Shown here one piece after another: positions 5,887-48,848 of a stretch of DNA of 50,709 bases (its first letter is position 1; each line of letters opens with the position of its first letter). The DNA lies in the sequence record NC_105617.1; one strand, written 5' to 3'. The stretch comes from a phage. Made by a program: the position numbers and the translations under genes. Below the pieces are notes generated by a model. That model ran no database searches. It saw only the letters and a list, made by a program, of their open reading frames with translations, and was not told the origin of the DNA.

Positions 5887-6654
5887 ATGCCTTACGAAAA
5901 TTTAATGTTACGCCCGGCGTGCCCTGGTAATCTTTCGGATACTTCAACCTACAATATTGATGGATCTTGTGTTGCTCAAGGCGATATTGAGTTCGGCTCC
6001 GCTGTTAAAGTTATCGGTATTGTTGACGGCGTTAAGGTTGTTTCCACGCTTACTGATGGTGAAACACCTTACGGAATCGCTTTCCGTTCCCAATATGAAC
6101 ACCTGAGCGGTAAAATCCTCGACGGTGAAGTTTGCAACGTCGTTTCTCATGGTCGCGTGTGGACGCTAACTTCTCTTGATGAAGCTCCGGCCTTGTTCTC
6201 AAAGTTACAATTTGGATCTGGTGGTGTTGTTACTGGTAGCTCTGGTTCCGTAGGTTGGACTTTTGCTGGTGGATTTGTTAAGCACGAGGACGGGTACATT
6301 ATTGAGGTTCAGGTTAAGCAAAATGCCTTTATTGTTCCACCTCCACCCCCTCCCGTGGTTCTTGTTGAGTCTGCGACGATTACAACTAACAAGGAGAGTC
6401 CTCAGCCAAACAATGCACCTGTGCAATTTAACGTTGCTGTAAAACCTGACAATGCCACCGATAAAACTGGCGTGTGGTCTGTTGATGCTGAAAATATTGC
6501 GACAATAGATCCAAAATCTGGCGTTCTTACTCCAATTGGTGGAGATGCGGCAGGTAGCGTAATCGTAAATTGGACGGCTAACGATGCCAGCAAAACTAAA
6601 GAATCGATCACTTATGTTTTTGATGCTGCGCCAGCCGAAGAAGAAGAGTCATAA
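5887..6654 (+). CDS. Capsid decoration-like protein with C-terminal Ig-like domain, paralog 2
   Basis: 255 aa; N-terminal domain paralogous to 5351-5827, poly-proline linker (PPPPPPP), C-terminal Ig-like segment. Confidence 0.4.
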   Translation: MPYENLMLRPACPGNLSDTSTYNIDGSCVAQGDIEFGSAVKVIGIVDGVKVVSTLTDGETPYGIAFRSQYEHLSGKILDGEVCNVVSHGRVWTLTSLDEAPALFSKLQFGSGGVVTGSSGSVGWTFAGGFVKHEDGYIIEVQVKQNAFIVPPPPPPVVLVESATITTNKESPQPNNAPVQFNVAVKPDNATDKTGVWSVDAENIATIDPKSGVLTPIGGDAAGSVIVNWTANDASKTKESITYVFDAAPAEEEES

Positions 6655-27203: not shown

Positions 27204-27656
27204 TTAACTAAAAATGCTATTTGTCGTTCCAATATCTTCCTTCTTCACGACCCGCATAAACTTCTTGTTTTTGCAGCGCTTCTCAAGGCACTTGCCGTTC
27301 CCATCAAACTTCAGATCGAATCGCAGCCATGCGGCCCGAAATCCTTTGCAACCCTGTCGGCGATAAGCACGATGCGCCGCTTCAGCGCCTTGCCAGGAAA
27401 TCATATTTCGATCCTTCCAACCTTGAACCGTCTGGTTGCTAACTTTCAGAGCCTTTGCACAAGCCGCCGGACCACCATAATATTCAATAAGAGCATCCAA
27501 TCGCGCCCTCAGTCCTGCGCGCGTTTCTTCTTTATGGATATAAAATCCGCAGCGCTGGCGGGGCTTTTTGTCTTTACCGCGTCGTGTTCCGTTGTTACCA
27601 TTGATGTGACGCTTATCGATTTCACCAGTTGACTCTGCGATACGTTTCATATTCAT
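27204..27656 (-). CDS. Cro/YdaS-like HTH transcriptional regulator
   Basis: Start at ATG 27656 with RBS AGGAGAG; segment YYGGPAACAKALKVSNQTVQGW matches Cro/YdaS-type HTH pattern; basic N-terminal region. Confidence 0.45.
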   Translation of the reverse strand: MNMKRIAESTGEIDKRHINGNNGTRRGKDKKPRQRCGFYIHKEETRAGLRARLDALIEYYGGPAACAKALKVSNQTVQGWKDRNMISWQGAEAAHRAYRRQGCKGFRAAWLRFDLKFDGNGKCLEKRCKNKKFMRVVKKEDIGTTNSIFS

Positions 27657-27669
27657 CCTAACTCTCCTG

Positions 27670-27720
27670 TAGCACTTTTTGCTAAAAACGTTTACTGTAT
27701 GCCGTGTATTATATCGTAAA
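27670..27720 (+). promoter_or_regulatory. Box-hairpin-(-10) cassette upstream of helicase
   Basis: tagcactttttgctaaaa, 22-nt spacer, TATTAT; hairpin cgtttac/gtaaacg. Confidence 0.5.
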
Positions 27721-27750
27721 CGATACAACGATTCAAAGGATTAAATAGCC

Positions 27751-29769
27751 GTGACAATTAACATCAAAAAGCAAATCGCATTACTTGGCGATGACTATAT
27801 AAAACGCACTCAAGAACGATTCACTGTTGGTGAGGTCGTTCCGTATCCGTACCAGGTTGTTGCTTATGCTGAGATCGCAAAACGCCTATCAAATTACGAG
27901 CATCCATTCTTTGTTAAGGCGTCAGTGTCTGCTGGTAAGACAATCATTTTCGCTATGGTTGCAAAGCAGTGTCAAAAAATGGGCTTAAAAATGCTTGTGC
28001 TGGCTCGCCAGGGTGAGATTGTCGATCAGGATAGCGAAGAGATCGATAACTTCGGGGTAACTAACTCCATATTCTCAGCGTCACTTGGAATCAAGTCCTG
28101 CTACTTCCCGATCGTGGTTGGCTCTGAGGGCACTGTTGCAAATGGTTTAAATAATGAGTTGGCTGATTTTGTCCCTCACGTAATCGGGATAGATGAATGT
28201 CACCAGGTGGATTGGGAAGACCTTGCGCAAGCCATAGACGGAAAGGAAACGATGGAACAGATGCGGGGAGAAAAAGGGAAAATTATCATGGACGGTGATA
28301 TTCCTCTGATTGGTAATGATGGAAAGCCTCTTCTTGGAACTAAGCGCAGTCAGTACACGATCGTAATCATGGAAATGATGCGACGCTGTAAAGAGGTTCA
28401 CGGTCACGACCTTAGAATATTTGGTATGACTGGTTCTGAATTTAGGGGCGTAGTTCCTATTCTTGTTGAGAATCCAAAGGCGTTAGGCTTCTGGCGTGAG
28501 CGCGTTACTGATATAGACACCAACTACCTTATTGAGTTTGGCTCAGTCGTTCCGACTATATTCGGTTCTACGGACGGAGTTCACTACGATCTTGATAAAT
28601 TTAAGGCATCAAGCGAGGATGGGGTACAGGACTTTGCAGAGAAAGATATGAAGGCAATGGAAGATGAGATCCTTCATGATAAATCTCTTACTCAGCGAAT
28701 CATGCAAATGGTTGCCAAAAAGGCTGAAGAGCGTAACGCAGTTCTGATCACATGCGCCGGGGTGCGTCACTGCAAAGAGGCAGCGGCGGCACTACCACCA
28801 GGAAGCACATATGCAATTATTACTGGCGACACAGACACTAAAACGCGCAAGAAGATTCTTGATGATGTTAGGGCCGGGAAAATTAAATACACCTTTCAGG
28901 TCATGGCGCTAACTACTGGCGTTAACGTTCCAAATTGGGATTTCAGTGTAATACTTCGCAAGATAGGATCTCTTACCTTGCTGATTCAGCTTTTGGGTAG
29001 AGGTATGCGACTTCTTAAATCCTGGCAGGTTGCTGAAGGGATGGTTAAGCAAGACCATCTTGTATGGGATTTCGCAGGCACGATGGATGAGTTGGGGCAG
29101 CTTTATTTCGATCCTATACTTGAGCAGGCTCAGTTCCAGAAGCGATTTGAGAACGGAAAAGACCCTAAAACGTGCCCGAAATGTGGTTGCGTAAATAGCT
29201 TCTATGCTCGCCGATGCGTTAACGTTATCGACGGTGAGCGCTGTGATCATTTCTGGACTTCTCAGATTTGCGAGGACCAGGTTGATGAGCGCACTGGGAA
29301 AATTCTTGTCAAAGGGTGCGGTGCCGAGAATGACGTTGTGGCCCGAGTCTGTCGCTGTTGCGATGTTTCTCTTGTTGATCCTAACCTTAAGTTATCCGGT
29401 AAGGCTTACACCAAGAATGACTGGTACGAGGTCAAGAATTTTGAAGTTACGTTAACCAAAAACCAAAAGGGTGTGATATACAAATACACGCTTATTAATG
29501 ATGAGGGTGATGAGTTCAAGGCGTATGAAAAATTCTTCCCTGAGTCAGACTCTAAGATTTGCGGTACGCTATGGAAAACTAAAGGAGTATTACCTCACGT
29601 ATCAGATCCTAAAATGCGTCGATACTTTATCGGAATGAAGAACGCTATCAAGATCGTGCAATACTCTCATCATATAGCGCATCCGGTACGCGTTACTCAT
29701 AGGCGCAACCAGAAGAAGGAAGATATTATTTCACGCAAAGATTTCGGTATGGAGGATATCCCGGAATGA
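27751..29769 (+). CDS. SF2 DEAH-box helicase
   Basis: GTG start; motif I SAGKT, motif II GIDECHQ, motif VI QLLGRGMR; C-terminal Cys-rich zinc-ribbon-like region. Confidence 0.8.
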   Translation: MTINIKKQIALLGDDYIKRTQERFTVGEVVPYPYQVVAYAEIAKRLSNYEHPFFVKASVSAGKTIIFAMVAKQCQKMGLKMLVLARQGEIVDQDSEEIDNFGVTNSIFSASLGIKSCYFPIVVGSEGTVANGLNNELADFVPHVIGIDECHQVDWEDLAQAIDGKETMEQMRGEKGKIIMDGDIPLIGNDGKPLLGTKRSQYTIVIMEMMRRCKEVHGHDLRIFGMTGSEFRGVVPILVENPKALGFWRERVTDIDTNYLIEFGSVVPTIFGSTDGVHYDLDKFKASSEDGVQDFAEKDMKAMEDEILHDKSLTQRIMQMVAKKAEERNAVLITCAGVRHCKEAAAALPPGSTYAIITGDTDTKTRKKILDDVRAGKIKYTFQVMALTTGVNVPNWDFSVILRKIGSLTLLIQLLGRGMRLLKSWQVAEGMVKQDHLVWDFAGTMDELGQLYFDPILEQAQFQKRFENGKDPKTCPKCGCVNSFYARRCVNVIDGERCDHFWTSQICEDQVDERTGKILVKGCGAENDVVARVCRCCDVSLVDPNLKLSGKAYTKNDWYEVKNFEVTLTKNQKGVIYKYTLINDEGDEFKAYEKFFPESDSKICGTLWKTKGVLPHVSDPKMRRYFIGMKNAIKIVQYSHHIAHPVRVTHRRNQKKEDIISRKDFGMEDIPE

Positions 29770-30182
29770 TTACAGATAAAGGCGATTACTTAGAGTTTTA
29801 CGAGCGAGATCCTAGCGACACGAGAAAGGAGGACGCTCATCAAGTAGACTGCGTGTCTTGGTTGAAATACAATTTTCCTCAGCTTCTATTTTGGCACACA
29901 GTTAACGAAGGTGAAAAAACAATCACATCGGCGCTCAGGGACGAGCAAGCCGGATTGCTTAAAGGTGTTTCGGACTTCGTTATCCTGATTGGTGTAAACT
30001 CACGTTACCCGTTCGCAGCTATCGAACTCAAACGGGTTAATAAGTCCGGCAAGGGAAAGGCGTCACCAGTCAGCGATAAGCAAAGGGAGTTTCTCAAAAA
30101 GGTTCGGGATCGCGGTGGATTCTCTGCCGTTGCATACGGATTTGAGCAATTCAAGCTGGCAATATACGATTTAACTAAATAG
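29766..30182 (+). CDS. VRR-NUC domain nuclease
   Basis: 138 aa with D...ELK signature (SDFVILIG...AIELK) typical of VRR-NUC PD-(D/E)xK nucleases; overlaps helicase stop. Confidence 0.55.
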   Translation: MITDKGDYLEFYERDPSDTRKEDAHQVDCVSWLKYNFPQLLFWHTVNEGEKTITSALRDEQAGLLKGVSDFVILIGVNSRYPFAAIELKRVNKSGKGKASPVSDKQREFLKKVRDRGGFSAVAYGFEQFKLAIYDLTK

Positions 30183-30228
30183 CACTTTTTGTTAAAACTG
30201 CCTGAATGGAATCTGGCATTATTATCCC
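30180..30228 (+). promoter_or_regulatory. Box-hairpin-(-10) cassette upstream of dam
   Basis: TAG stop of upstream gene = box start; ttgtta + 22 nt + CATTAT; near-duplicate of minus cassette 40057-40099. Confidence 0.5.
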
Positions 30229-30249: not shown

Positions 30250-30963
30250 ATGAAAGACTTTAAAGATATCGAAACAATCGACTTTGCAGAAACCGGGTGC
30301 TCATTCACTCGCGAAGCAATAGCATCAGGCGGTTATTATCAAGCATTGAAAACGCCAACCTGCAAAGAGATTTCAGGACGTCGATACAAGGGAACAAATA
30401 CACCTGACGCAGTTCGTGATTTATGGTCAACCCCACGCGAGGTTATCGCATACCTTGAGGGTCGCTACGGAAAATATGATCTCGACGCTGCGGCAAGCGA
30501 AGAAAATAAAGTTTGCGAGAAGTTTTATTCCCAGGAAACAAACTGCTTAAAACGTTGGTGGGGTAAAAATAAGCACGTATGGTTAAACCCTCCTTACAGT
30601 CGACCTGATATATTCGTCAAGAAAGCGATTGAGCAAATGGAGCACAACAACCAGATCGATATTCTTTTACCTGCCGATAACTCGACTGCGTGGTTTACTG
30701 AGGCTCGACAGCACGCGGCTGAAATCATCTGGATTGAAGCTGATTTGACTGAGGATATTGACGGCAATGAATACGCACGATCCGGTCGCTTGGCTTTCAT
30801 ATCCGGTGAAACTGGAAAGGCGGTTGACGGCAATAACAAAGGTTCGGTAATTTTCATTATGCGCGAACTTAAAGAGGGTGAGACACAGCAAACTCACTAT
30901 ATCCCAATCACAAGCATTTGCCCTTCGGTGAAAAACAAGCGCGCAAAAGTGAGGAAAGTATGA
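30250..30963 (+). CDS. dam: DNA N6-adenine methyltransferase (phage Dam family)
   Basis: 237 aa; catalytic NPPY motif (WLNPPYS); architecture of phage orphan Dam enzymes. Confidence 0.8.
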   Translation: MKDFKDIETIDFAETGCSFTREAIASGGYYQALKTPTCKEISGRRYKGTNTPDAVRDLWSTPREVIAYLEGRYGKYDLDAAASEENKVCEKFYSQETNCLKRWWGKNKHVWLNPPYSRPDIFVKKAIEQMEHNNQIDILLPADNSTAWFTEARQHAAEIIWIEADLTEDIDGNEYARSGRLAFISGETGKAVDGNNKGSVIFIMRELKEGETQQTHYIPITSICPSVKNKRAKVRKV

Positions 30964-31211
30964 TGAACGATAAAATGATTCCGGTTAAGTTAACTGATCA
31001 AGGTTTATGGCTGCTTTATCGAGCTACCTGCTGCGAAATTATGGAGAGAAACGGATTGACTCAGGATGTTATTGGTTGCGATCTGTGGGAGTTCACTAGT
31101 TCTCTTGATATGTCTTTCGACGAGATAAAAAGTGAATGCATAGAGAATTGGCCTTCAATCATACAGAAAGACGTGGAAGAACTTAAAGCTGATACAATCG
31201 TAAAGCACTAA
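30960..31211 (+). CDS. Hypothetical protein
   Basis: ATGA overlap with dam stop, RBS GAGGAAAG; 83 aa. Confidence 0.4.
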   Translation: MMNDKMIPVKLTDQGLWLLYRATCCEIMERNGLTQDVIGCDLWEFTSSLDMSFDEIKSECIENWPSIIQKDVEELKADTIVKH

Positions 31212-31250
31212 TTGCTAAAAATACCCGGCGAAAGTCGGGTATAGTTATTT
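31204..31250 (+). promoter_or_regulatory. Box-hairpin-(-10) cassette
   Basis: agcacTAAttgctaaaaa + 22 nt + TATAGT; hairpin tacccg/cgggta. Confidence 0.5.
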
Positions 31251-31969: not shown

Positions 31970-32047
31970 ATCTTTATTTTGCTGTAGTATTAACACCGCT
32001 AATTTCATTTTCAGTAATGTATTTCATTATCATGTAAGGATTAAAAT

Positions 32048-33199
32048 ATGTCACAAGCTAAAATCACTACCGAGCAACTTATTGAAGAGCGCATGAGCGG
32101 ACTTACACTTCGCGAGATTGCGGAAAAGTACGGCATGCACATTCGCACTGTTGAAGCTCGTCACGCAAAACTTGCAAAGGAAGGTCACTTCCACGGTAAC
32201 GAGCATGTTGCTAAGAACGTACCGGAAGGATTCATGGTAAAAGGCACATCAACGATGATTCGCGGCGATGGGACCGAGGTAGTGCGATGGGTTAAGACCG
32301 ATCAGGACCGTGAGAAGATTGCGGCAATGATGGAAGCAGCGCGTATTGCATTCTGTGAAGACTTGCCGAGAGCAAAACCAACTGAGCTACTCACATCGCA
32401 AGGGCTTACAACCGCTATTGGCAAGCTGGCACTCTACCCGGTGTTCGATCTTCACATTGGCGCGCTCGCTCACAAGCATGAATGCGGAGAGAACTACTCT
32501 ACAGACGTAGCGGAAAAAGTGCTGAATGACTTCTTTAACTACGCGATCGATATTGCCCCGAACGCAGAGAAGGCTGTTCTGTTAATCGGCGGCGACTTCC
32601 TTCACTCAGACGGTCTTGATTCTGTTACCCCGGCAAGCGGTCACGTTCTGGATCAGGATTCACGATATGCGAAATTGGTGCATGTGGCTATTCGATCGGT
32701 GCGAAGAGCTATCGACAAAATGCTGACTAAACACAAAGAGGTCGAAGTTCAGGTTATCGAAGGGAACCACGACCAGGCCGGAATGATTTGGCTACGCGCT
32801 GCAATGGCTGCATACTATGAGGACGAGCCGCGAGTATTCGTTGACGTTAGTCCTATGATTCTGCATAAGACCCGCTGGGGAAATACCTTGTTGGGATACA
32901 CTCACGGTCACACGATGAAAAAGGCAGACACGCGACTTGCAGCGATGGCGGCAGACTTCCGTGCAGACTTCGGTGAAAGCAAATACGTGTATACTCACAG
33001 TGGACACTGGCACCATCAAACAATCACAGAACACTCGTTAGGTATTGATGAGGTTCACGGGCAGTTAGGCGCGAAAGATGCATACGCCGCGCGAGGCGGG
33101 TGGCGCTCATATCGCCAGGCGGCGGTAATCGTTTACGATAAACAGTTTGGTGAAATCGGTCGATTCATCTATCGTCCAGAAATGACAGGATCGCACTAA
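32048..33199 (+). CDS. Calcineurin-like metallophosphoesterase with N-terminal HTH (sigma70 region 4-like)
   Basis: Motifs DLH, GGDFLHSDG, GNHD, GHTH/GHWH; N-terminal LTLREIAEKYGMHIRTVEARHAKL resembles sigma-70 region 4.2 / LuxR-type HTH. Confidence 0.6.
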   Translation: MSQAKITTEQLIEERMSGLTLREIAEKYGMHIRTVEARHAKLAKEGHFHGNEHVAKNVPEGFMVKGTSTMIRGDGTEVVRWVKTDQDREKIAAMMEAARIAFCEDLPRAKPTELLTSQGLTTAIGKLALYPVFDLHIGALAHKHECGENYSTDVAEKVLNDFFNYAIDIAPNAEKAVLLIGGDFLHSDGLDSVTPASGHVLDQDSRYAKLVHVAIRSVRRAIDKMLTKHKEVEVQVIEGNHDQAGMIWLRAAMAAYYEDEPRVFVDVSPMILHKTRWGNTLLGYTHGHTMKKADTRLAAMAADFRADFGESKYVYTHSGHWHHQTITEHSLGIDEVHGQLGAKDAYAARGGWRSYRQAAVIVYDKQFGEIGRFIYRPEMTGSH

Positions 33200-33235
33200 T
33201 CGCCAAAAACTCCCGAAGGGATTCGGGTATATTGA
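33192..33235 (+). promoter_or_regulatory. Box-hairpin-(-10) cassette (degenerate box)
   Basis: cgcacTAAtcgccaaaaac + 22 nt + TATATT; hairpin cccgaa/ttcggg. Confidence 0.45.
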
Positions 33236-33262
33236 CCACATAGAAAACAAAGAGGGTATTTC

Positions 33263-33439
33263 ATGAAACGAGTTAAGTGCATCCGAAATGATTCCAAAAC
33301 GCTTCCATTCCGCGTAAATCAGATCTATAGTGTTGGTTATGATTTCGGAGGTGGATTGTTTGAGATTTACGATGGTAGAGGTTCAACAATACAAGCTCCT
33401 CTGAACGGTCATTACCTAGAATTTATTGAGCTAGATTAA
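33263..33439 (+). CDS. Small hypothetical protein
   Basis: 58-aa ORF below track cutoff with RBS AGAGGG, own promoter cassette upstream and hairpin terminator downstream. Confidence 0.35.
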   Translation: MKRVKCIRNDSKTLPFRVNQIYSVGYDFGGGLFEIYDGRGSTIQAPLNGHYLEFIELD

Positions 33440-34927: not shown

Positions 34928-34970
34928 AATATACCCGATACGAGATCGGGTGTTTTAACAAAAAGTGCTA
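34928..34970 (-). promoter_or_regulatory. Box-hairpin-(-10) cassette (minus)
   Basis: Minus strand tagcactttttgttaaaac + 22 nt + TATATT; hairpin cccgat/atcggg. Confidence 0.5.
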
Positions 34971-35079
34971 TTTGTACCTTTTCACATGAAGGAGCAACTC
35001 GCCATCCTGATCGCAAAGATTGTGTTCGCTGTCATTGTTGGCCCTCATTGAAGTAAGTAACAGGCTGAGTAACCCCTGT

Positions 35080-38107: not shown

Positions 38108-38151
38108 AATATACCTTACTCCCTATTTATTGTCTTTAGCAATTAGTGCTA
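38108..38151 (-). promoter_or_regulatory. Box-hairpin-(-10) cassette (minus)
   Basis: Minus strand tagcactaattgctaaag, hairpin gggagta/tactccc with TATATT in loop (spacer 23). Confidence 0.45.
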
Positions 38152-38295
38152 TCAGTACTCGGAAATTACTTTACACTCTTTGATTGTTCCACCTAGAACT
38201 ACTTTCTGCATCATTGCTTTTTGGTGGCTATCGTAAACGCGAACATTTTTTACGCTGTTAAATTTGCCAGTATAGAAAGTGTGAATATAAATCAT
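38152..38295 (-). CDS. Small hypothetical protein (micro-ORF)
   Basis: 47-aa ORF below track cutoff; ATGA overlap with upstream stop; its own stop TGA directly abuts a TAGCAC box. Confidence 0.25.
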   Translation of the reverse strand: MIYIHTFYTGKFNSVKNVRVYDSHQKAMMQKVVLGGTIKECKVISEY

Positions 38296-39639: not shown

Positions 39640-39682
39640 ACTATACCCCGATCTCACTCGGGGCGTTTAGCAATTCGTGCTA
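39640..39682 (-). promoter_or_regulatory. Box-hairpin-(-10) cassette (minus)
   Basis: Minus strand TAA stop + tagcacgaattgctaaac + 22 nt + TATAGT; hairpin ccccga/tcgggg. Confidence 0.55.
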
Positions 39683-40018
39683 TTAATCGATATCAAACTC
39701 AGCGGCGTATGCTTTCTTGAAGCCAGCTTCGCGCATAGTGCGCTTGCTGATTTTGCGCGGGAATTTGTACTGGCTGTTAGGCTTGACCCACCAGAAGCAG
39801 GAAGTCTCGCGAACGATTTCATATTTACCGTAACGAGTGAAGGTATCGCGTTCCATATCAGGCTGATTAACACAGGTCAGGAATTTAGCTGCTTTGTCTT
39901 CAGTTTTGATTTCTTCCCAAACGAATGAGTCCATTCCGTTAACCTTGCAAGCAACCATGATGTACTCAACGCCGTTTTCGATTTTGATGATTTCGTTACC
40001 GCGATTTTCGTATTTCAT
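39683..40018 (-). CDS. Hypothetical protein
   Basis: Start at ATG 40018 with RBS AGGAG downstream of cassette 40057-40099. Confidence 0.45.
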   Translation of the reverse strand: MKYENRGNEIIKIENGVEYIMVACKVNGMDSFVWEEIKTEDKAAKFLTCVNQPDMERDTFTRYGKYEIVRETSCFWWVKPNSQYKFPRKISKRTMREAGFKKAYAAEFDID

Positions 40019-41610: not shown

Positions 41611-42126
41611 ATGAGCAATACCAATCAGGAATTAAAAATCACCGACATGATTCGACTAACCTGCGATGCAATGTACCGCGACAAAGGCATGACCGAGTTC
41701 TCTTTCGTGGCTGATGATATGGCCCTAGAAGCAGCGCGATTCTACTTTCGTGGCCAGGAGGTAAGTGATAGCGATCTTGAATCTGCCGCTGCCGGATGGG
41801 TGGACCAGAACCAGGGGGAGGTAGAGAAGCGATTCAAATCTGCTTTCATCACTCCAATCATTACCCGACACTTTTGCAAGTATGGCAAGGTGGCAAAGGT
41901 GAAGGTAGGCCGGAATGACGCGGCAATCACGATGATAACCGTTATCGTTACCGACGAAGAGGTTCCGGTGAAGAAGCGCCGCAGCCGGAAAAAAGTTAGC
42001 CTGGCCGACTGCCTTGATTCGTTTGACGTTGATGTTAGCAAGCTATCCGATAGCGAGTTAATGGTTCGTGATGTGAATGAGATCGTGCGCCAGATGAAAG
42101 CACATATTGAAAAGTGTGGACTGTAA
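41611..42126 (+). CDS. Hypothetical protein
   Basis: 171 aa, first gene of the plus-strand early block, RBS AGAGGG; basic patch KKRRSRKK. Confidence 0.5.
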   Translation: MSNTNQELKITDMIRLTCDAMYRDKGMTEFSFVADDMALEAARFYFRGQEVSDSDLESAAAGWVDQNQGEVEKRFKSAFITPIITRHFCKYGKVAKVKVGRNDAAITMITVIVTDEEVPVKKRRSRKKVSLADCLDSFDVDVSKLSDSELMVRDVNEIVRQMKAHIEKCGL

Positions 42127-42138
42127 GGAGAGATGAGT

Positions 42139-42378
42139 ATGAGCAAGATTAAGCATGACGCCCTGAAAGGTATCTTGATGCGACTAAACCCAGGTGAAGC
42201 ATTCCAGCTTAACCCCGAGACGTTTGGATTCAATGGTGATTATCGTACAACCTTCGAATTTGTCCGGTATGTAAAGAAAGAGTTTGGATTCGAAGTTATT
42301 CACGCAGGTCTTATCAATGGCATCCAGACATTCATCTTTAAGCCAAATGAGATTCGTTGCTTCACGCTGATGAAATAG
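42139..42378 (+). CDS. Hypothetical protein
   Basis: ATG 42139 preferred over 42133 for RBS spacing; stop TAG lies in a TAGCAC box. Confidence 0.45.
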   Translation: MSKIKHDALKGILMRLNPGEAFQLNPETFGFNGDYRTTFEFVRYVKKEFGFEVIHAGLINGIQTFIFKPNEIRCFTLMK

Positions 42379-42424
42379 CACTTTTTGTTAAAACCGGAGC
42401 GGGATAACCTGGTATAGTTATCCC
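42376..42424 (+). promoter_or_regulatory. Box-hairpin-(-10) cassette
   Basis: TAG stop = box start; ttgtta + 22 nt + TATAGT; hairpin gggataa/ttatccc. Confidence 0.55.
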
Positions 42425-42646: not shown

Positions 42647-43117
42647 ATGACAACCATTACCGTATTTCTTGCTAAAGATGAGCTTGATGGCGAAATGTCA
42701 TTCTTCGCGTTTGAGCACAAGACCGGATCGCACTGGCATGCGTACACTCACTACACGGTTATCTCAATCGAGGCGTTCGAAGGTGATTCACTCACTGATA
42801 AGCTGAGTTATTTTGTTGAAGCGGTTAAGGCTAGCGGCGGCTGTGAGTGGAAAGAAGATCACGAAGTTATGCGAATGCTTGAGATGGTCAATCCGGTTCG
42901 ACTTGAGTCTTTCGAGCTTGATTCTTACGTGAGCATTAAGGTGAGAAAGCCGGGTGAGTTGTTGCCAGGGATGCGTGTGCTGACTGGTTACTCAGGTCGT
43001 AAAGTGTGGCGAACCATATCGAAGATTCGACAGCGCTCAGAAACATGCTACAGCGTGTTCTTTGATGACGGCTGGAATGAGGTTGCTGGTAGTAACGTGA
43101 AGTATCTTACCAAATAG
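42647..43117 (+). CDS. Hypothetical protein
   Basis: 156 aa; stop TAG inside a TAGCAC box. Confidence 0.45.
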   Translation: MTTITVFLAKDELDGEMSFFAFEHKTGSHWHAYTHYTVISIEAFEGDSLTDKLSYFVEAVKASGGCEWKEDHEVMRMLEMVNPVRLESFELDSYVSIKVRKPGELLPGMRVLTGYSGRKVWRTISKIRQRSETCYSVFFDDGWNEVAGSNVKYLTK

Positions 43118-43163
43118 CACGAATTGCTAAAACCGGATCGGGGTATCTTGCTATAGTTACCCC
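43115..43163 (+). promoter_or_regulatory. Box-hairpin-(-10) cassette
   Basis: TAG stop = box start; ttgcta + 22 nt + TGcTATAGT; hairpin ggggta/tacccc. Confidence 0.55.
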
Positions 43164-46843: not shown

Positions 46844-47046
46844 CAGCAGAAGATGCAGCACGTGAAGCAGTGGAAGGAATGCGACCAAATACCTCCAGAA
46901 TCGCACACTACTACAAATTTGACGTATCGGCAGTGCAATTGGTCCATGAAATTTTAAGGCTCCCACAAGTCGATTCAGCGCGTGTGGTGGCGTGCTTAAA
47001 AAATTATTTTTGCATCACTATTAAAACGAATAGCACGAATTGCTAA
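46828..47046 (+). CDS. Hypothetical protein
   Basis: 72 aa; last five codons (NSTNC-stop) are encoded by a TAGCAC box. Confidence 0.45.
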   Translation: MATIMTAEDAAREAVEGMRPNTSRIAHYYKFDVSAVQLVHEILRLPQVDSARVVACLKNYFCITIKTNSTNC

Positions 47047-47079
47047 AACCTATCAAGGGGAATGCGCTATGATTCCCCT
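47031..47079 (+). promoter_or_regulatory. Box-hairpin-(-10) cassette
   Basis: Box encodes last codons NSTNC-TAA of upstream gene; ttgcta + 22 nt + TATGAT; hairpin ggggaat/attcccc. Confidence 0.5.
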
Positions 47080-47633: not shown

Positions 47634-48167
47634 ATGGATAAAATTACAATTTGGGGTCAAACTATCAACCTGTTTCTCGGTCCGCGCCGCGTCGCAATCT
47701 TTGACTTTGACGGAACACTGAGTGACGGATCAAAGCGCCTTCACCTGTTGCCAAAAAAGGATTTGCACTTGACTGAAAGCTGGTCTGAGTTTAATCGAGC
47801 CGCAATATTTGATAACCCCATCCAGAGCACGATTGAGGTGATGAACTCATTACGCCAAGCTGGGGTGTATGTAATCATTTTAACCGGGCGAAGCGATGAG
47901 GTGCGTTACGCATCTGAGTTATGGCTTAAGCATCACGGTGCGCGATATGATTACTTAGTCATGCGACCGCACACAGACAACCGGAAAGACACAGTGATGA
48001 AAGAGGAAGCGGTGCGAGCGATCGGTATTGAAAACATCCTCGCGGCTTGGGATGATTCACCGCAAATTATTCCATTATTCCGGTCGCTTGGAATAACCAC
48101 ATATGCTGTAGTTGACTATGGCGATAACGTTCACGATCATTTAAAATCGCACGGGGTAGAGAAATGA
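47634..48167 (+). CDS. HAD-superfamily phosphatase (polynucleotide 3'-phosphatase / nucleotidase-like)
   Basis: HAD motif I FDFDGTL, motif II ILTGRSD, DNRKDTVMKEE segment, motif IV AWDDSPQ; resembles the phosphatase domain of T4 polynucleotide kinase as recalled. Confidence 0.6.
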   Translation: MDKITIWGQTINLFLGPRRVAIFDFDGTLSDGSKRLHLLPKKDLHLTESWSEFNRAAIFDNPIQSTIEVMNSLRQAGVYVIILTGRSDEVRYASELWLKHHGARYDYLVMRPHTDNRKDTVMKEEAVRAIGIENILAAWDDSPQIIPLFRSLGITTYAVVDYGDNVHDHLKSHGVEK

Positions 48168-48275: not shown

Positions 48276-48848
48276 ATGAAAACAGCTATCGTTTTAAACG
48301 GCGCGCCTGGAGCGGGAAAAGACACTATCGGATGCATCCTGGCTGACACTTACGATCACGTAGCCTTGCGCAGCTTCAAAGCGCCAATGTTTGAGATTGC
48401 CCGGGCAATCCTGGGTGAAGCTAACTACGAGTATTTCATGTTCTTGTATGAGGACCGTCGATATAAAGAAGAGCCAGCATCCATCCTGAACGGTAAAAGC
48501 CCACGCCAGTTTATGATCTGGATTAGCGAGGAAGTCATCAAGCCGCAGTTCGGAAATCGCTTCTTCGGTATGCGAGCGGAAAGCAAGGTGAAAGAGTCAC
48601 ACTCCCTTTCTGTATTTACTGACGGTGGATTCAAAGATGAGATCTTGCAAATGATTGAAGGCGATATCCAGGTCAAGCTATGCCGCATACATCGCAACGG
48701 CTGCAACTTCGATAACGACAGTCGAGATTATATCTACCTGGATGATATGATCGGTGTCAACGGTTATCAGGAATGTGACTTCTTCTCTGTCGAAGGTCAT
48801 CCAGAAATTACCGCTCAGCACATAGCCGCTACGTTCATCAACAAATAG
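48276..48848 (+). CDS. P-loop nucleoside-monophosphate kinase-like protein (dNMP kinase candidate)
   Basis: Walker A GAPGAGKDT at N-terminus; LNGKSP segment; overall resemblance to phage dNMP kinases as recalled. Confidence 0.5.
   Translation: MKTAIVLNGAPGAGKDTIGCILADTYDHVALRSFKAPMFEIARAILGEANYEYFMFLYEDRRYKEEPASILNGKSPRQFMIWISEEVIKPQFGNRFFGMRAESKVKESHSLSVFTDGGFKDEILQMIEGDIQVKLCRIHRNGCNFDNDSRDYIYLDDMIGVNGYQECDFFSVEGHPEITAQHIAATFINK

Follow-up and report, generated by a model that had tools for sequence, protein, structure and literature searches.

Phage T4 gp47 is an Mre11-type metallophosphoesterase (MPE) that is needed for host DNA breakdown and for recombination. Other MPE nucleases include DP1, the small subunit of PolD and an archaeal 3'-5' proofreading exonuclease, and PdeM (TIGR04123), the Mn-dependent single-stranded DNA endonuclease of a ligase-Lhr repair cluster in Pseudomonas putida. 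T1-like phages are common laboratory contaminants and therapy candidates. Here we analyse an MPE gene of such a phage, the open reading frame (ORF) at 32048..33199 on the + strand of record NC_105617.1, a 50,709-base complete genome of a T1-like siphophage (Tunavirus, Drexlerviridae); this whole stretch is called the window below. The product joins an N-terminal helix-turn-helix (HTH) to an MPE domain. We tentatively read it, at a likelihood that we put a little short of even, as a DNA-directed two-metal phosphodiesterase, a nuclease of the Mre11, SbcD, PolD-DP1 and PdeM kind. The nearest experimentally studied functional precedent is gp48 of mycobacteriophage A10ZJ24, an MPE with phosphodiesterase activity that disrupts host genomic DNA and blunts host defence (PMC12287305). 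It is unrelated to the window protein and belongs to a different MPE family; its motif I starts at D10, so that there is no N-terminal HTH or hairpin. The ten organism names seen most often in the 2021 phage records that match the query did not include Mycobacterium, although no direct check for mycobacteriophage matches was made.

As a discovery the gene matters little, since it is annotated in the T1 reference record and in hundreds of relatives. It is an already catalogued, near-universal core gene of T1-like phages, and the fusion of HTH and phosphoesterase is already reflected in database names. Should it turn out to degrade host DNA or to process the ends of phage DNA, the enzyme would close a gap in what is understood of T1-like phages and would extend the Mre11-like nucleases by a type that needs no partner and is tethered through an HTH.

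Identity of the gene and architecture of its product

The ORF is uninterrupted, starts with ATG and encodes 383 residues plus a stop codon. By megablast its DNA is 99.3% identical to that of phages vB_EcoS_Chapo and Sfin-3, with 88 phage records matching; the Sfin-3 RefSeq counterpart is gp55, labelled "DNA repair exonuclease". The phage T1 orthologue, ST16 (YP_003929.1, 377 residues), bears the same label and lies at the same genomic position. Residues 4-380 align with positions 2-389 of the 390 in the PHROG 704 profile ('DNA repair exonuclease', E = 7.2e-157). The window protein is thus an orthologue of ST16 and a full-length member of PHROG 704, from which it differs in nothing of note. The family name is a computational label.

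Conservation was assessed in 108 diverse relatives, 31-84% identical to the query, and an AlphaFold2 model built from the 108-sequence alignment had a mean predicted local distance difference test (pLDDT) of 92.9 and a predicted template-modelling score (pTM) of 0.80. A preliminary description of this DNA had proposed an HTH fused to a complete calcineurin-type MPE. The alignment and the model bear this out, with the fusion conserved across the family and the gene organised as follows.

32036-32040, + strand: Shine-Dalgarno-like AAGGA, 7 nucleotides before the ATG, as read from the sequence
32069..32179, + strand: three-helix HTH, residues 8-44 (helices 8-16, 21-28 and 32-44)
32219..32362, + strand: conserved beta-hairpin (62-71/77-86) and helix (88-104), residues 58-105, from conservation and the model
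32363..32413, + strand: poorly conserved linker, residues 106-122, with the lowest column conservation and lower pLDDT
32414..33181, + strand: calcineurin-type MPE domain, residues 123-378

Most of the peptide strings quoted in the preliminary description were recovered (LTLREIAEKYGMHIRTVEARHAKL at residues 19-42, DLH at 134-136, GDFLHSDG at 182-189 and GNHD at 239-242). The string 'GHTH' is absent, and the actual histidine motifs are THGHT (H286, H288) and GHWHH (H320, H322, H323). The hairpin-helix at 58-105 and the long-standing annotation as a core gene had not been mentioned.

The phosphoesterase domain

The model shows the beta-sandwich MPE fold, with an alpha/beta sandwich at residues 123-375 and its last strand at 368-375. 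All five motifs of the calcineurin superfamily (DxH; GDxxD/H; GNH[D/E]; H; GHxH) are present in the query, together with a family-specific loop. In the lines below, invariant residues are identical in 108/108 relatives and conserved residues in at least 90% of them.

32447..32455, + strand: motif I, D134-L-H136; D134 and H136 invariant
32591..32611, + strand: motif II, G182-D183-F-L-H186-S-D188; G182 and D183 invariant, H186 and D188 conserved
32627..32665, + strand: loop T194-P-x-S-G-H-x-L-D202-x-D204-x-R206, after motif II; T194, L201, D202, D204 and R206 conserved
32762..32773, + strand: motif III, G239-N240-H241-D242; N240 and H241 invariant
32903..32911, + strand: motif IV, H286-G-H288; H286 invariant
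33002..33013, + strand: motif V, G319-H320-W-H322; H322 invariant, G319 and H320 conserved

The five motifs are conserved and the metal centre is thus intact. The Pfam MPE models do not suit so divergent a family: the query misses the cut-offs of Metallophos (15.7 bits vs 21.5) and Metallophos_2 (16.2 vs 27), and 26/108 and 21/108 relatives, respectively, match these models at E <= 0.01.

By fold and by profile, the nearest MPE relatives are DNA nucleases, namely PolD DP1, Mre11, SbcD and PdeM. The best MPE matches of the family profile among solved structures were T. maritima Mre11/SbcD (E = 0.07) and the 'Nuclease MPE' 6nvo, whose chain 6nvo_A has about 216 residues; a search of PDB sequences with the single query sequence gave no match at E <= 10. 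PdeM, the ligase-associated DNA-damage endonuclease, was the sole MPE-type NCBIfam model matched by the relatives (30/108, best E = 1.6e-5). A sister PHROG, phrog_284, labelled 'exonuclease', matches the query at E = 1.4e-14.

With Mre11 and SbcD, T4 gp47 included, the window protein shares the MPE fold and all metal ligands, and these proteins are among its top structural and profile neighbours. Its motif II, GDFLH, likewise has a histidine after GD; this GDFLH/GDxxH form presumably recalls the GDLFH of Mre11 and is only a lead. It differs in its sub-threshold sequence similarity (E 0.07-0.4) and in carrying the HTH and hairpin module at its N-terminus instead of a capping domain, the chain stopping just past the MPE core; T1-like genomes have no annotated Rad50/SbcC partner. 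Identity to DP1 is 12%, and DP1 works bound to the DP2 polymerase, whereas no such partner is annotated in T1. The likeness to PdeM comprises the 30 matching relatives, the weak 6nvo match and a Campylobacter phage homologue that adjoins a DNA ligase. The query itself, however, scored 13.1 bits against a PdeM cut-off of 150, and neither a ligase nor an Lhr helicase is annotated in T1. Membership of the Mre11/SbcD or PdeM families was therefore rejected, as the defining partners or domains are absent and the scores fall far below the cut-offs.

The N-terminal HTH and the hairpin-helix module

Structure prediction agreed with the proposed DNA-binding-type fold at the N-terminus: residues 8-44 form a three-helix HTH at pLDDT 93-96, in which helix 32-44 is presumed to be the recognition helix. 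By sequence the query HTH is borderline, with sub-cut-off matches to Sigma70_r4_2 (E = 0.022; 14.8 bits vs 25.7), HTH_23 (E = 0.022), HTH_24 (E = 0.075) and sigma70-ECF (E = 0.035; 13.7 bits vs 42.9), and no match to GerE (PF00196) at E <= 1. Among the 108 relatives the same region matched HTH_1 in 23, HTH_8 in 19, Sigma70_r4_2 in 12 (best 1.5e-9), HTH_50 in 12 and GerE in 5 (best 2.4e-8), so that LysR, Fis, LuxR, sigma-4 and transposase HTH models are hit alike. GerE was also the best solved-structure sequence match of the whole family profile (E = 0.012). The best structural neighbour of the modelled HTH was a resolvase HTH, as listed here with score, aligned length and deviation.

Tn3 resolvase: 7.0, 45 residues, 1.9 Å
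StyR (LuxR/NarL type): 6.3, 44 residues, 1.4 Å
EvgA (LuxR/NarL type): 6.2, 45 residues, 2.4 Å
DevR (LuxR/NarL type): 6.1, 49 residues, 3.1 Å
RcsB (LuxR/NarL type): 6.0, 48 residues, 3.2 Å
GcrA: 5.9, 43 residues, 2.2 Å
sigma-28: 5.7, 48 residues, 3.5 Å

The domain is therefore a generic small HTH of the resolvase, LuxR-GerE and sigma-4 structural class. The description of its pattern as that of sigma-70 region 4.2 or LuxR is fair as a class assignment, but no finding links it to sigma-70 or RNA polymerase in particular, given the failed cut-offs and the resolvase as nearest structure. It has three helices followed by a linker, whereas LuxR/GerE domains have four helices, and it is attached neither to a receiver domain nor to sigma regions 2-3 nor to a recombinase. 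In the model the HTH starts at residue 8 and is followed by the hairpin, the helix and the MPE domain, leaving sigma regions 2 and 3 absent. A fragment or mimic of a sigma factor was thus rejected, as the domain falls short of the cut-offs for sigma-70 region 4 (PF08281 / PF04545; TIGR02937), is joined to no region 2 and most resembles a resolvase HTH in structure.

The HTH is the usual, not the sole, N-terminus of the family. The family profile was matched from its first 15 positions by 111/149 distant cluster representatives and only beyond position 60 by 14. Distant relatives share a median of 17% identity with the query in the HTH, 35% in the hairpin-helix and 39% in the MPE domain. The hairpin-helix, with the motif PxG[FY]xVKGTSTxxxxDGxxxxxWVKT and nearly invariant G75 and W81, shows roughly the same degree of conservation as the catalytic domain.

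Distribution and genomic setting

The family comprises 4645 cluster representatives at E <= 1e-3 and 963 at E <= 1e-30. By tblastn it was found in 2021 phage records, near full length in 1946. Sampled carriers include Drexlerviridae, Dhillonvirus, Guernseyvirinae (Jerseyvirus and Kagunavirus), Gorganvirus, Casjensviridae and Vibrio phages, and a shorter form occurs in the sampled records of Campylobacter Eucampyvirinae. Existing labels include "DNA repair exonuclease", "putative phosphoesterase", "metallophosphoesterase", "DNA binding protein", "HTH domain-containing protein" and "HTH luxR-type domain-containing protein", the last being that of the homologue in Dhillonvirus BF9. Literature searches on Drexlerviridae metallophosphoesterases, on T1 host-DNA degradation and on T1-like phosphoesterases in CRISPR interference (CRISPRi) found nothing relevant. 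A PUA-Cal-HAD preprint was set aside, its 'Calcineurin-CE' being an unrelated host effector.

In the window the gene is preceded on the same strand by enzymes of nucleic-acid metabolism and followed by SH3, holin, endolysin and spanin genes. T1 ST16 shares this layout of helicase, VRR-NUC and Dam, then MPE, (SH3), holin, endolysin and spanin. The genes that bear on the argument are given here.

27751-29769, + strand: superfamily-2 helicase, upstream of the MPE gene
29766-30182, + strand: VRR-NUC nuclease, upstream of the MPE gene
30250-30963, + strand: Dam-type methylase, upstream, followed by small ORFs and then the MPE gene
33263-33439, + strand: SH3-like protein of 58 residues, DUF7244 (E = 8.5e-29), between the MPE gene and the holin gene
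47634-48167, + strand: HAD_PNKP phosphatase gene (E = 1.5e-16), 15 kb from the MPE gene
48276-48848: deoxynucleoside monophosphate (dNMP) kinase gene

A 2026 paper on lysis modules reports the arrangement exonuclease-(SH3)-holin-endolysin-spanin as persistent in 508/522 Drexlerviridae genomes, with the stand-alone SH3 protein as a shell component of the module; in Drexlerviridae that lack the SH3 gene, polynucleotide kinase and dNMP kinase genes come next (PMC13164509).

Elsewhere the setting differs. The homologue follows the lysis genes in Vibrio phage pYD21-A and Rhodobacter phage RcPeripeteia, lies between lysozyme and small terminase in Dhillonvirus, and lies between portal and head genes in Gorganvirus. 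It is flanked by endonuclease VII and a PNKP-type phosphatase in the podovirus-like contig L002, and the shorter homologue of a Campylobacter phage adjoins a DNA ligase and a Holliday-junction resolvase. In Jerseyvirus and Kagunavirus it belongs to a small island on the opposite strand amid the tail genes, beside a superinfection-immunity gene, and in Kagunavirus a HAD_PNKP gene directly follows it. Nucleic-acid enzymes are the commonest functional neighbours of the homologues. Because the position of the gene varies between lineages, context does not fix its role.

We also observed that the Guernseyvirinae island (L004 4772-7167, L005 4759-7240) interrupts the tail genes, with those for the tail assembly chaperone on one side and the neighbouring tail protein gene on the other, and that it holds the HTH-MPE gene, the superinfection-immunity protein and one or two genes more. 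The genes annotated 'polynucleotide kinase' at 47634-48167 in the window and at 6128-6613 in Kagunavirus L004 match the HAD_PNKP phosphatase domain only (E = 1.5e-16 and 8.4e-19, respectively; lengths 161-177 residues). These T1-like and Kagunavirus proteins appear to be stand-alone 3'-phosphatases that have no kinase domain.

A DNA-tethered nuclease as the favoured reading

In the reading that we favour, the C-terminal 255 residues would form a complete binuclear metal centre hydrolysing phosphodiester bonds. The N-terminal three-helix HTH, which diverges fast between lineages, would act as a compact anchor keeping the enzyme on duplex DNA, and the conserved hairpin-helix probably lies against the catalytic domain or forms a cap over it. 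DNA ends or DNA structures present during infection would be the likeliest substrates. Two candidate roles may be proposed on this basis: breakdown of the host chromosome, which would supply nucleotides to the phage dNMP kinase, and trimming of the ends and branches of replicating phage DNA, or processing of packaging DNA.

Besides the invariant catalytic residues, the confident model and the nuclease relatives of the catalytic domain, this reading is favoured by the helicase, VRR-NUC nuclease and Dam methylase that precede the gene on the same strand and by the presence of a DNA-binding-type HTH at the N-terminus of most relatives. The nucleic-acid enzymes beside the homologues in contig L002, in the Campylobacter phage and in Drexlerviridae that lack the SH3 gene (PMC13164509) also speak for it, and A10ZJ24 gp48 and T4 gp47 serve as precedents. 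Several points weigh against it. The sequence links to Mre11, SbcD and PdeM are all below curated thresholds and the structural margin is modest, the Mre11 capping domain is absent from the model, and no Rad50/SbcC is annotated in the T1 or tuinn records. Several lineages place the gene beside lysis, packaging or tail genes and not beside replication genes. T1-like phages already have a RecE-like exonuclease and an Erf annealing protein for recombination, and we found no biochemical or genetic experiment on any family member in the literature. Given the RecE-like and Erf-like proteins and the missing Rad50/SbcC, the product is not part of a classical Mre11 complex, nor is it the exonuclease chiefly responsible for recombination.

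Alternative functions

The MPE domain of bacterial Pnkp (Clostridium thermocellum) heals broken ends, acting as a 2',3'-cyclic phosphodiesterase or 3'-phosphatase. The window protein could do the same on broken RNA or DNA ends together with a PNKP-type enzyme and so undo damage inflicted by ribonuclease or nuclease defences of the host, which we consider unlikely yet the best placed of the alternatives. A PNKP-family gene adjoins the MPE gene in Kagunavirus, where it encodes a stand-alone HAD_PNKP phosphatase, and in contig L002, and the same adjacency is reported for Drexlerviridae without the SH3 gene (PMC13164509). The window has a HAD_PNKP gene too, but 15 kb away from the MPE gene. Such a neighbour would already supply the 3'-phosphatase, making a second one redundant; moreover, the T1 and tuinn annotations contain neither an RNA nor a DNA ligase, and the HTH suits duplex DNA better than RNA ends.

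The opposite-strand island of Guernseyvirinae, beside a superinfection-immunity gene, is a typical position for an accessory gene and would suit a counter-defence phosphodiesterase that degrades cyclic nucleotides or oligonucleotides used as immune signals or uses up some other small nucleotide. We regard this as improbable. A small-molecule substrate would leave the DNA-binding HTH and the hairpin module unexplained, and persistence in 508/522 Drexlerviridae marks the gene as core and not accessory (PMC13164509). A PADLOC search returned 0 families at E <= 1, and no similar anti-defence family was found in the literature.

Proposed targeting to promoter DNA, to a conserved box or to RNA polymerase

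The preliminary description had also suggested that the HTH could target the enzyme to promoter DNA or to a conserved box of the phage's cassettes. The box itself is real: ATAGCAC-N3-TTGYTAAA occurs in 25 copies at <=2 mismatches in the window, against 0.32 expected, and its strand tracks gene orientation. Many copies hold a TAGCA-N5-TGCTA dyad over a -35-like TTGCTA hexamer, and the box is followed by a hairpin of variable sequence and then by a TATAGT-like -10. Judged by these letters, the box seems to be a promoter/terminator cassette of the phage itself, to which an operator for a dimeric regulator may belong. Examples of box sites and another candidate binder are as follows.

30179-30196, 31202-31219, 42375-42392, 43114-43131 and 47030-47047, + strand: box sites
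34954-34971, 38135-38152 and 39666-39683, - strand: box sites
27204-27728, - strand: 'transcriptional regulator' of 173 residues, Cro-like, beside the primase gene; match to a P22 Cro-like HTH at E = 6.8e-5, sub-cut-off

If the sigma-4-like HTH brought the phosphoesterase to promoter DNA, to this box or to RNA polymerase, the protein would be a transcription-linked regulator or enzyme. The HTH does belong to the sigma-4/LuxR class, a dyad over a -35-like hexamer could suit a dimeric HTH protein, and phage tuinn of the Tempevirinae, another Drexlerviridae subfamily, which keeps the box in 18 copies, has a similar recognition helix (VRSVERR vs IRTVEAR here). Nevertheless, we hold this to be improbable as well. 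No sigma-region cut-off was reached, sigma regions 2 and 3 are absent, and the best structural neighbour is a resolvase HTH. The Dhillonvirus BF9 orthologue is 45% identical and keeps the HTH residues K5, I6, T7, E9, Q10, I24, A25, Y28, R33, R38, A40, L42 and K44, yet no box copy was found in the whole BF9 genome (44,963 bases); nor was any found in the sampled loci of other carriers, including those of Kagunavirus and the podovirus-like contig. No box lies directly upstream of the MPE gene itself, the nearest upstream boxes on the + strand being at 31202 and 31534. The separate Cro-like regulator would be at least as good a candidate binder of the box, and the catalytically intact MPE has no evident promoter role. 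As the box is absent from BF9 despite its similar HTH, we rejected the idea that the HTH is generally linked to the T1 promoter box, and the proposed targeting to the cassette box is left unsupported.

A narrower version, confined to T1-like phages, is that a sequence-specific HTH parks the active nuclease or phosphodiesterase on the ~25 promoter/hairpin cassettes or on RNA polymerase bound there. We think this very improbable, a shade more so than promoter targeting at large. If true, DNA or RNA cleavage would be coupled to transcription units, for example in the switch from early/middle to lysis transcription or in telling phage from host DNA during chromosome degradation.

Least probable of all, and rejected, is a lambda-type Ser/Thr/Tyr protein phosphatase tethered to DNA: the superfamily is that of lambda phosphatase (NinI), but the structural neighbours are distant, motif II reads GDFLHSD here and GDxVDRG in PPP-type phosphatases, and Vibrio phage pYD21-A carries both a NinI-like phosphatase and the present gene, which implies different functions.

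Further observations on the locus

Some box hairpins resemble terminators in which the 3' arm forms the -10, for example at 31221-31242. The T1 record annotates many short rho-independent terminators between genes, and these may be the hairpins of the box cassettes. One hairpin-bearing box copy lies at the end of the MPE gene.

33189..33237, + strand: degenerate promoter-box copy with hairpin CCCGAAGGGATTCGGG (33212-33227), overlapping the stop codon and preceding the SH3 ORF

The T1 record has a terminator just downstream of ST16 (41980-42007), which may correspond to this element. Finally, the annotated start of the tuinn orthologue (L011 19385-20581) lies 27 codons upstream of the conserved MxxxKITDEQ start of other phages and was probably mis-called.

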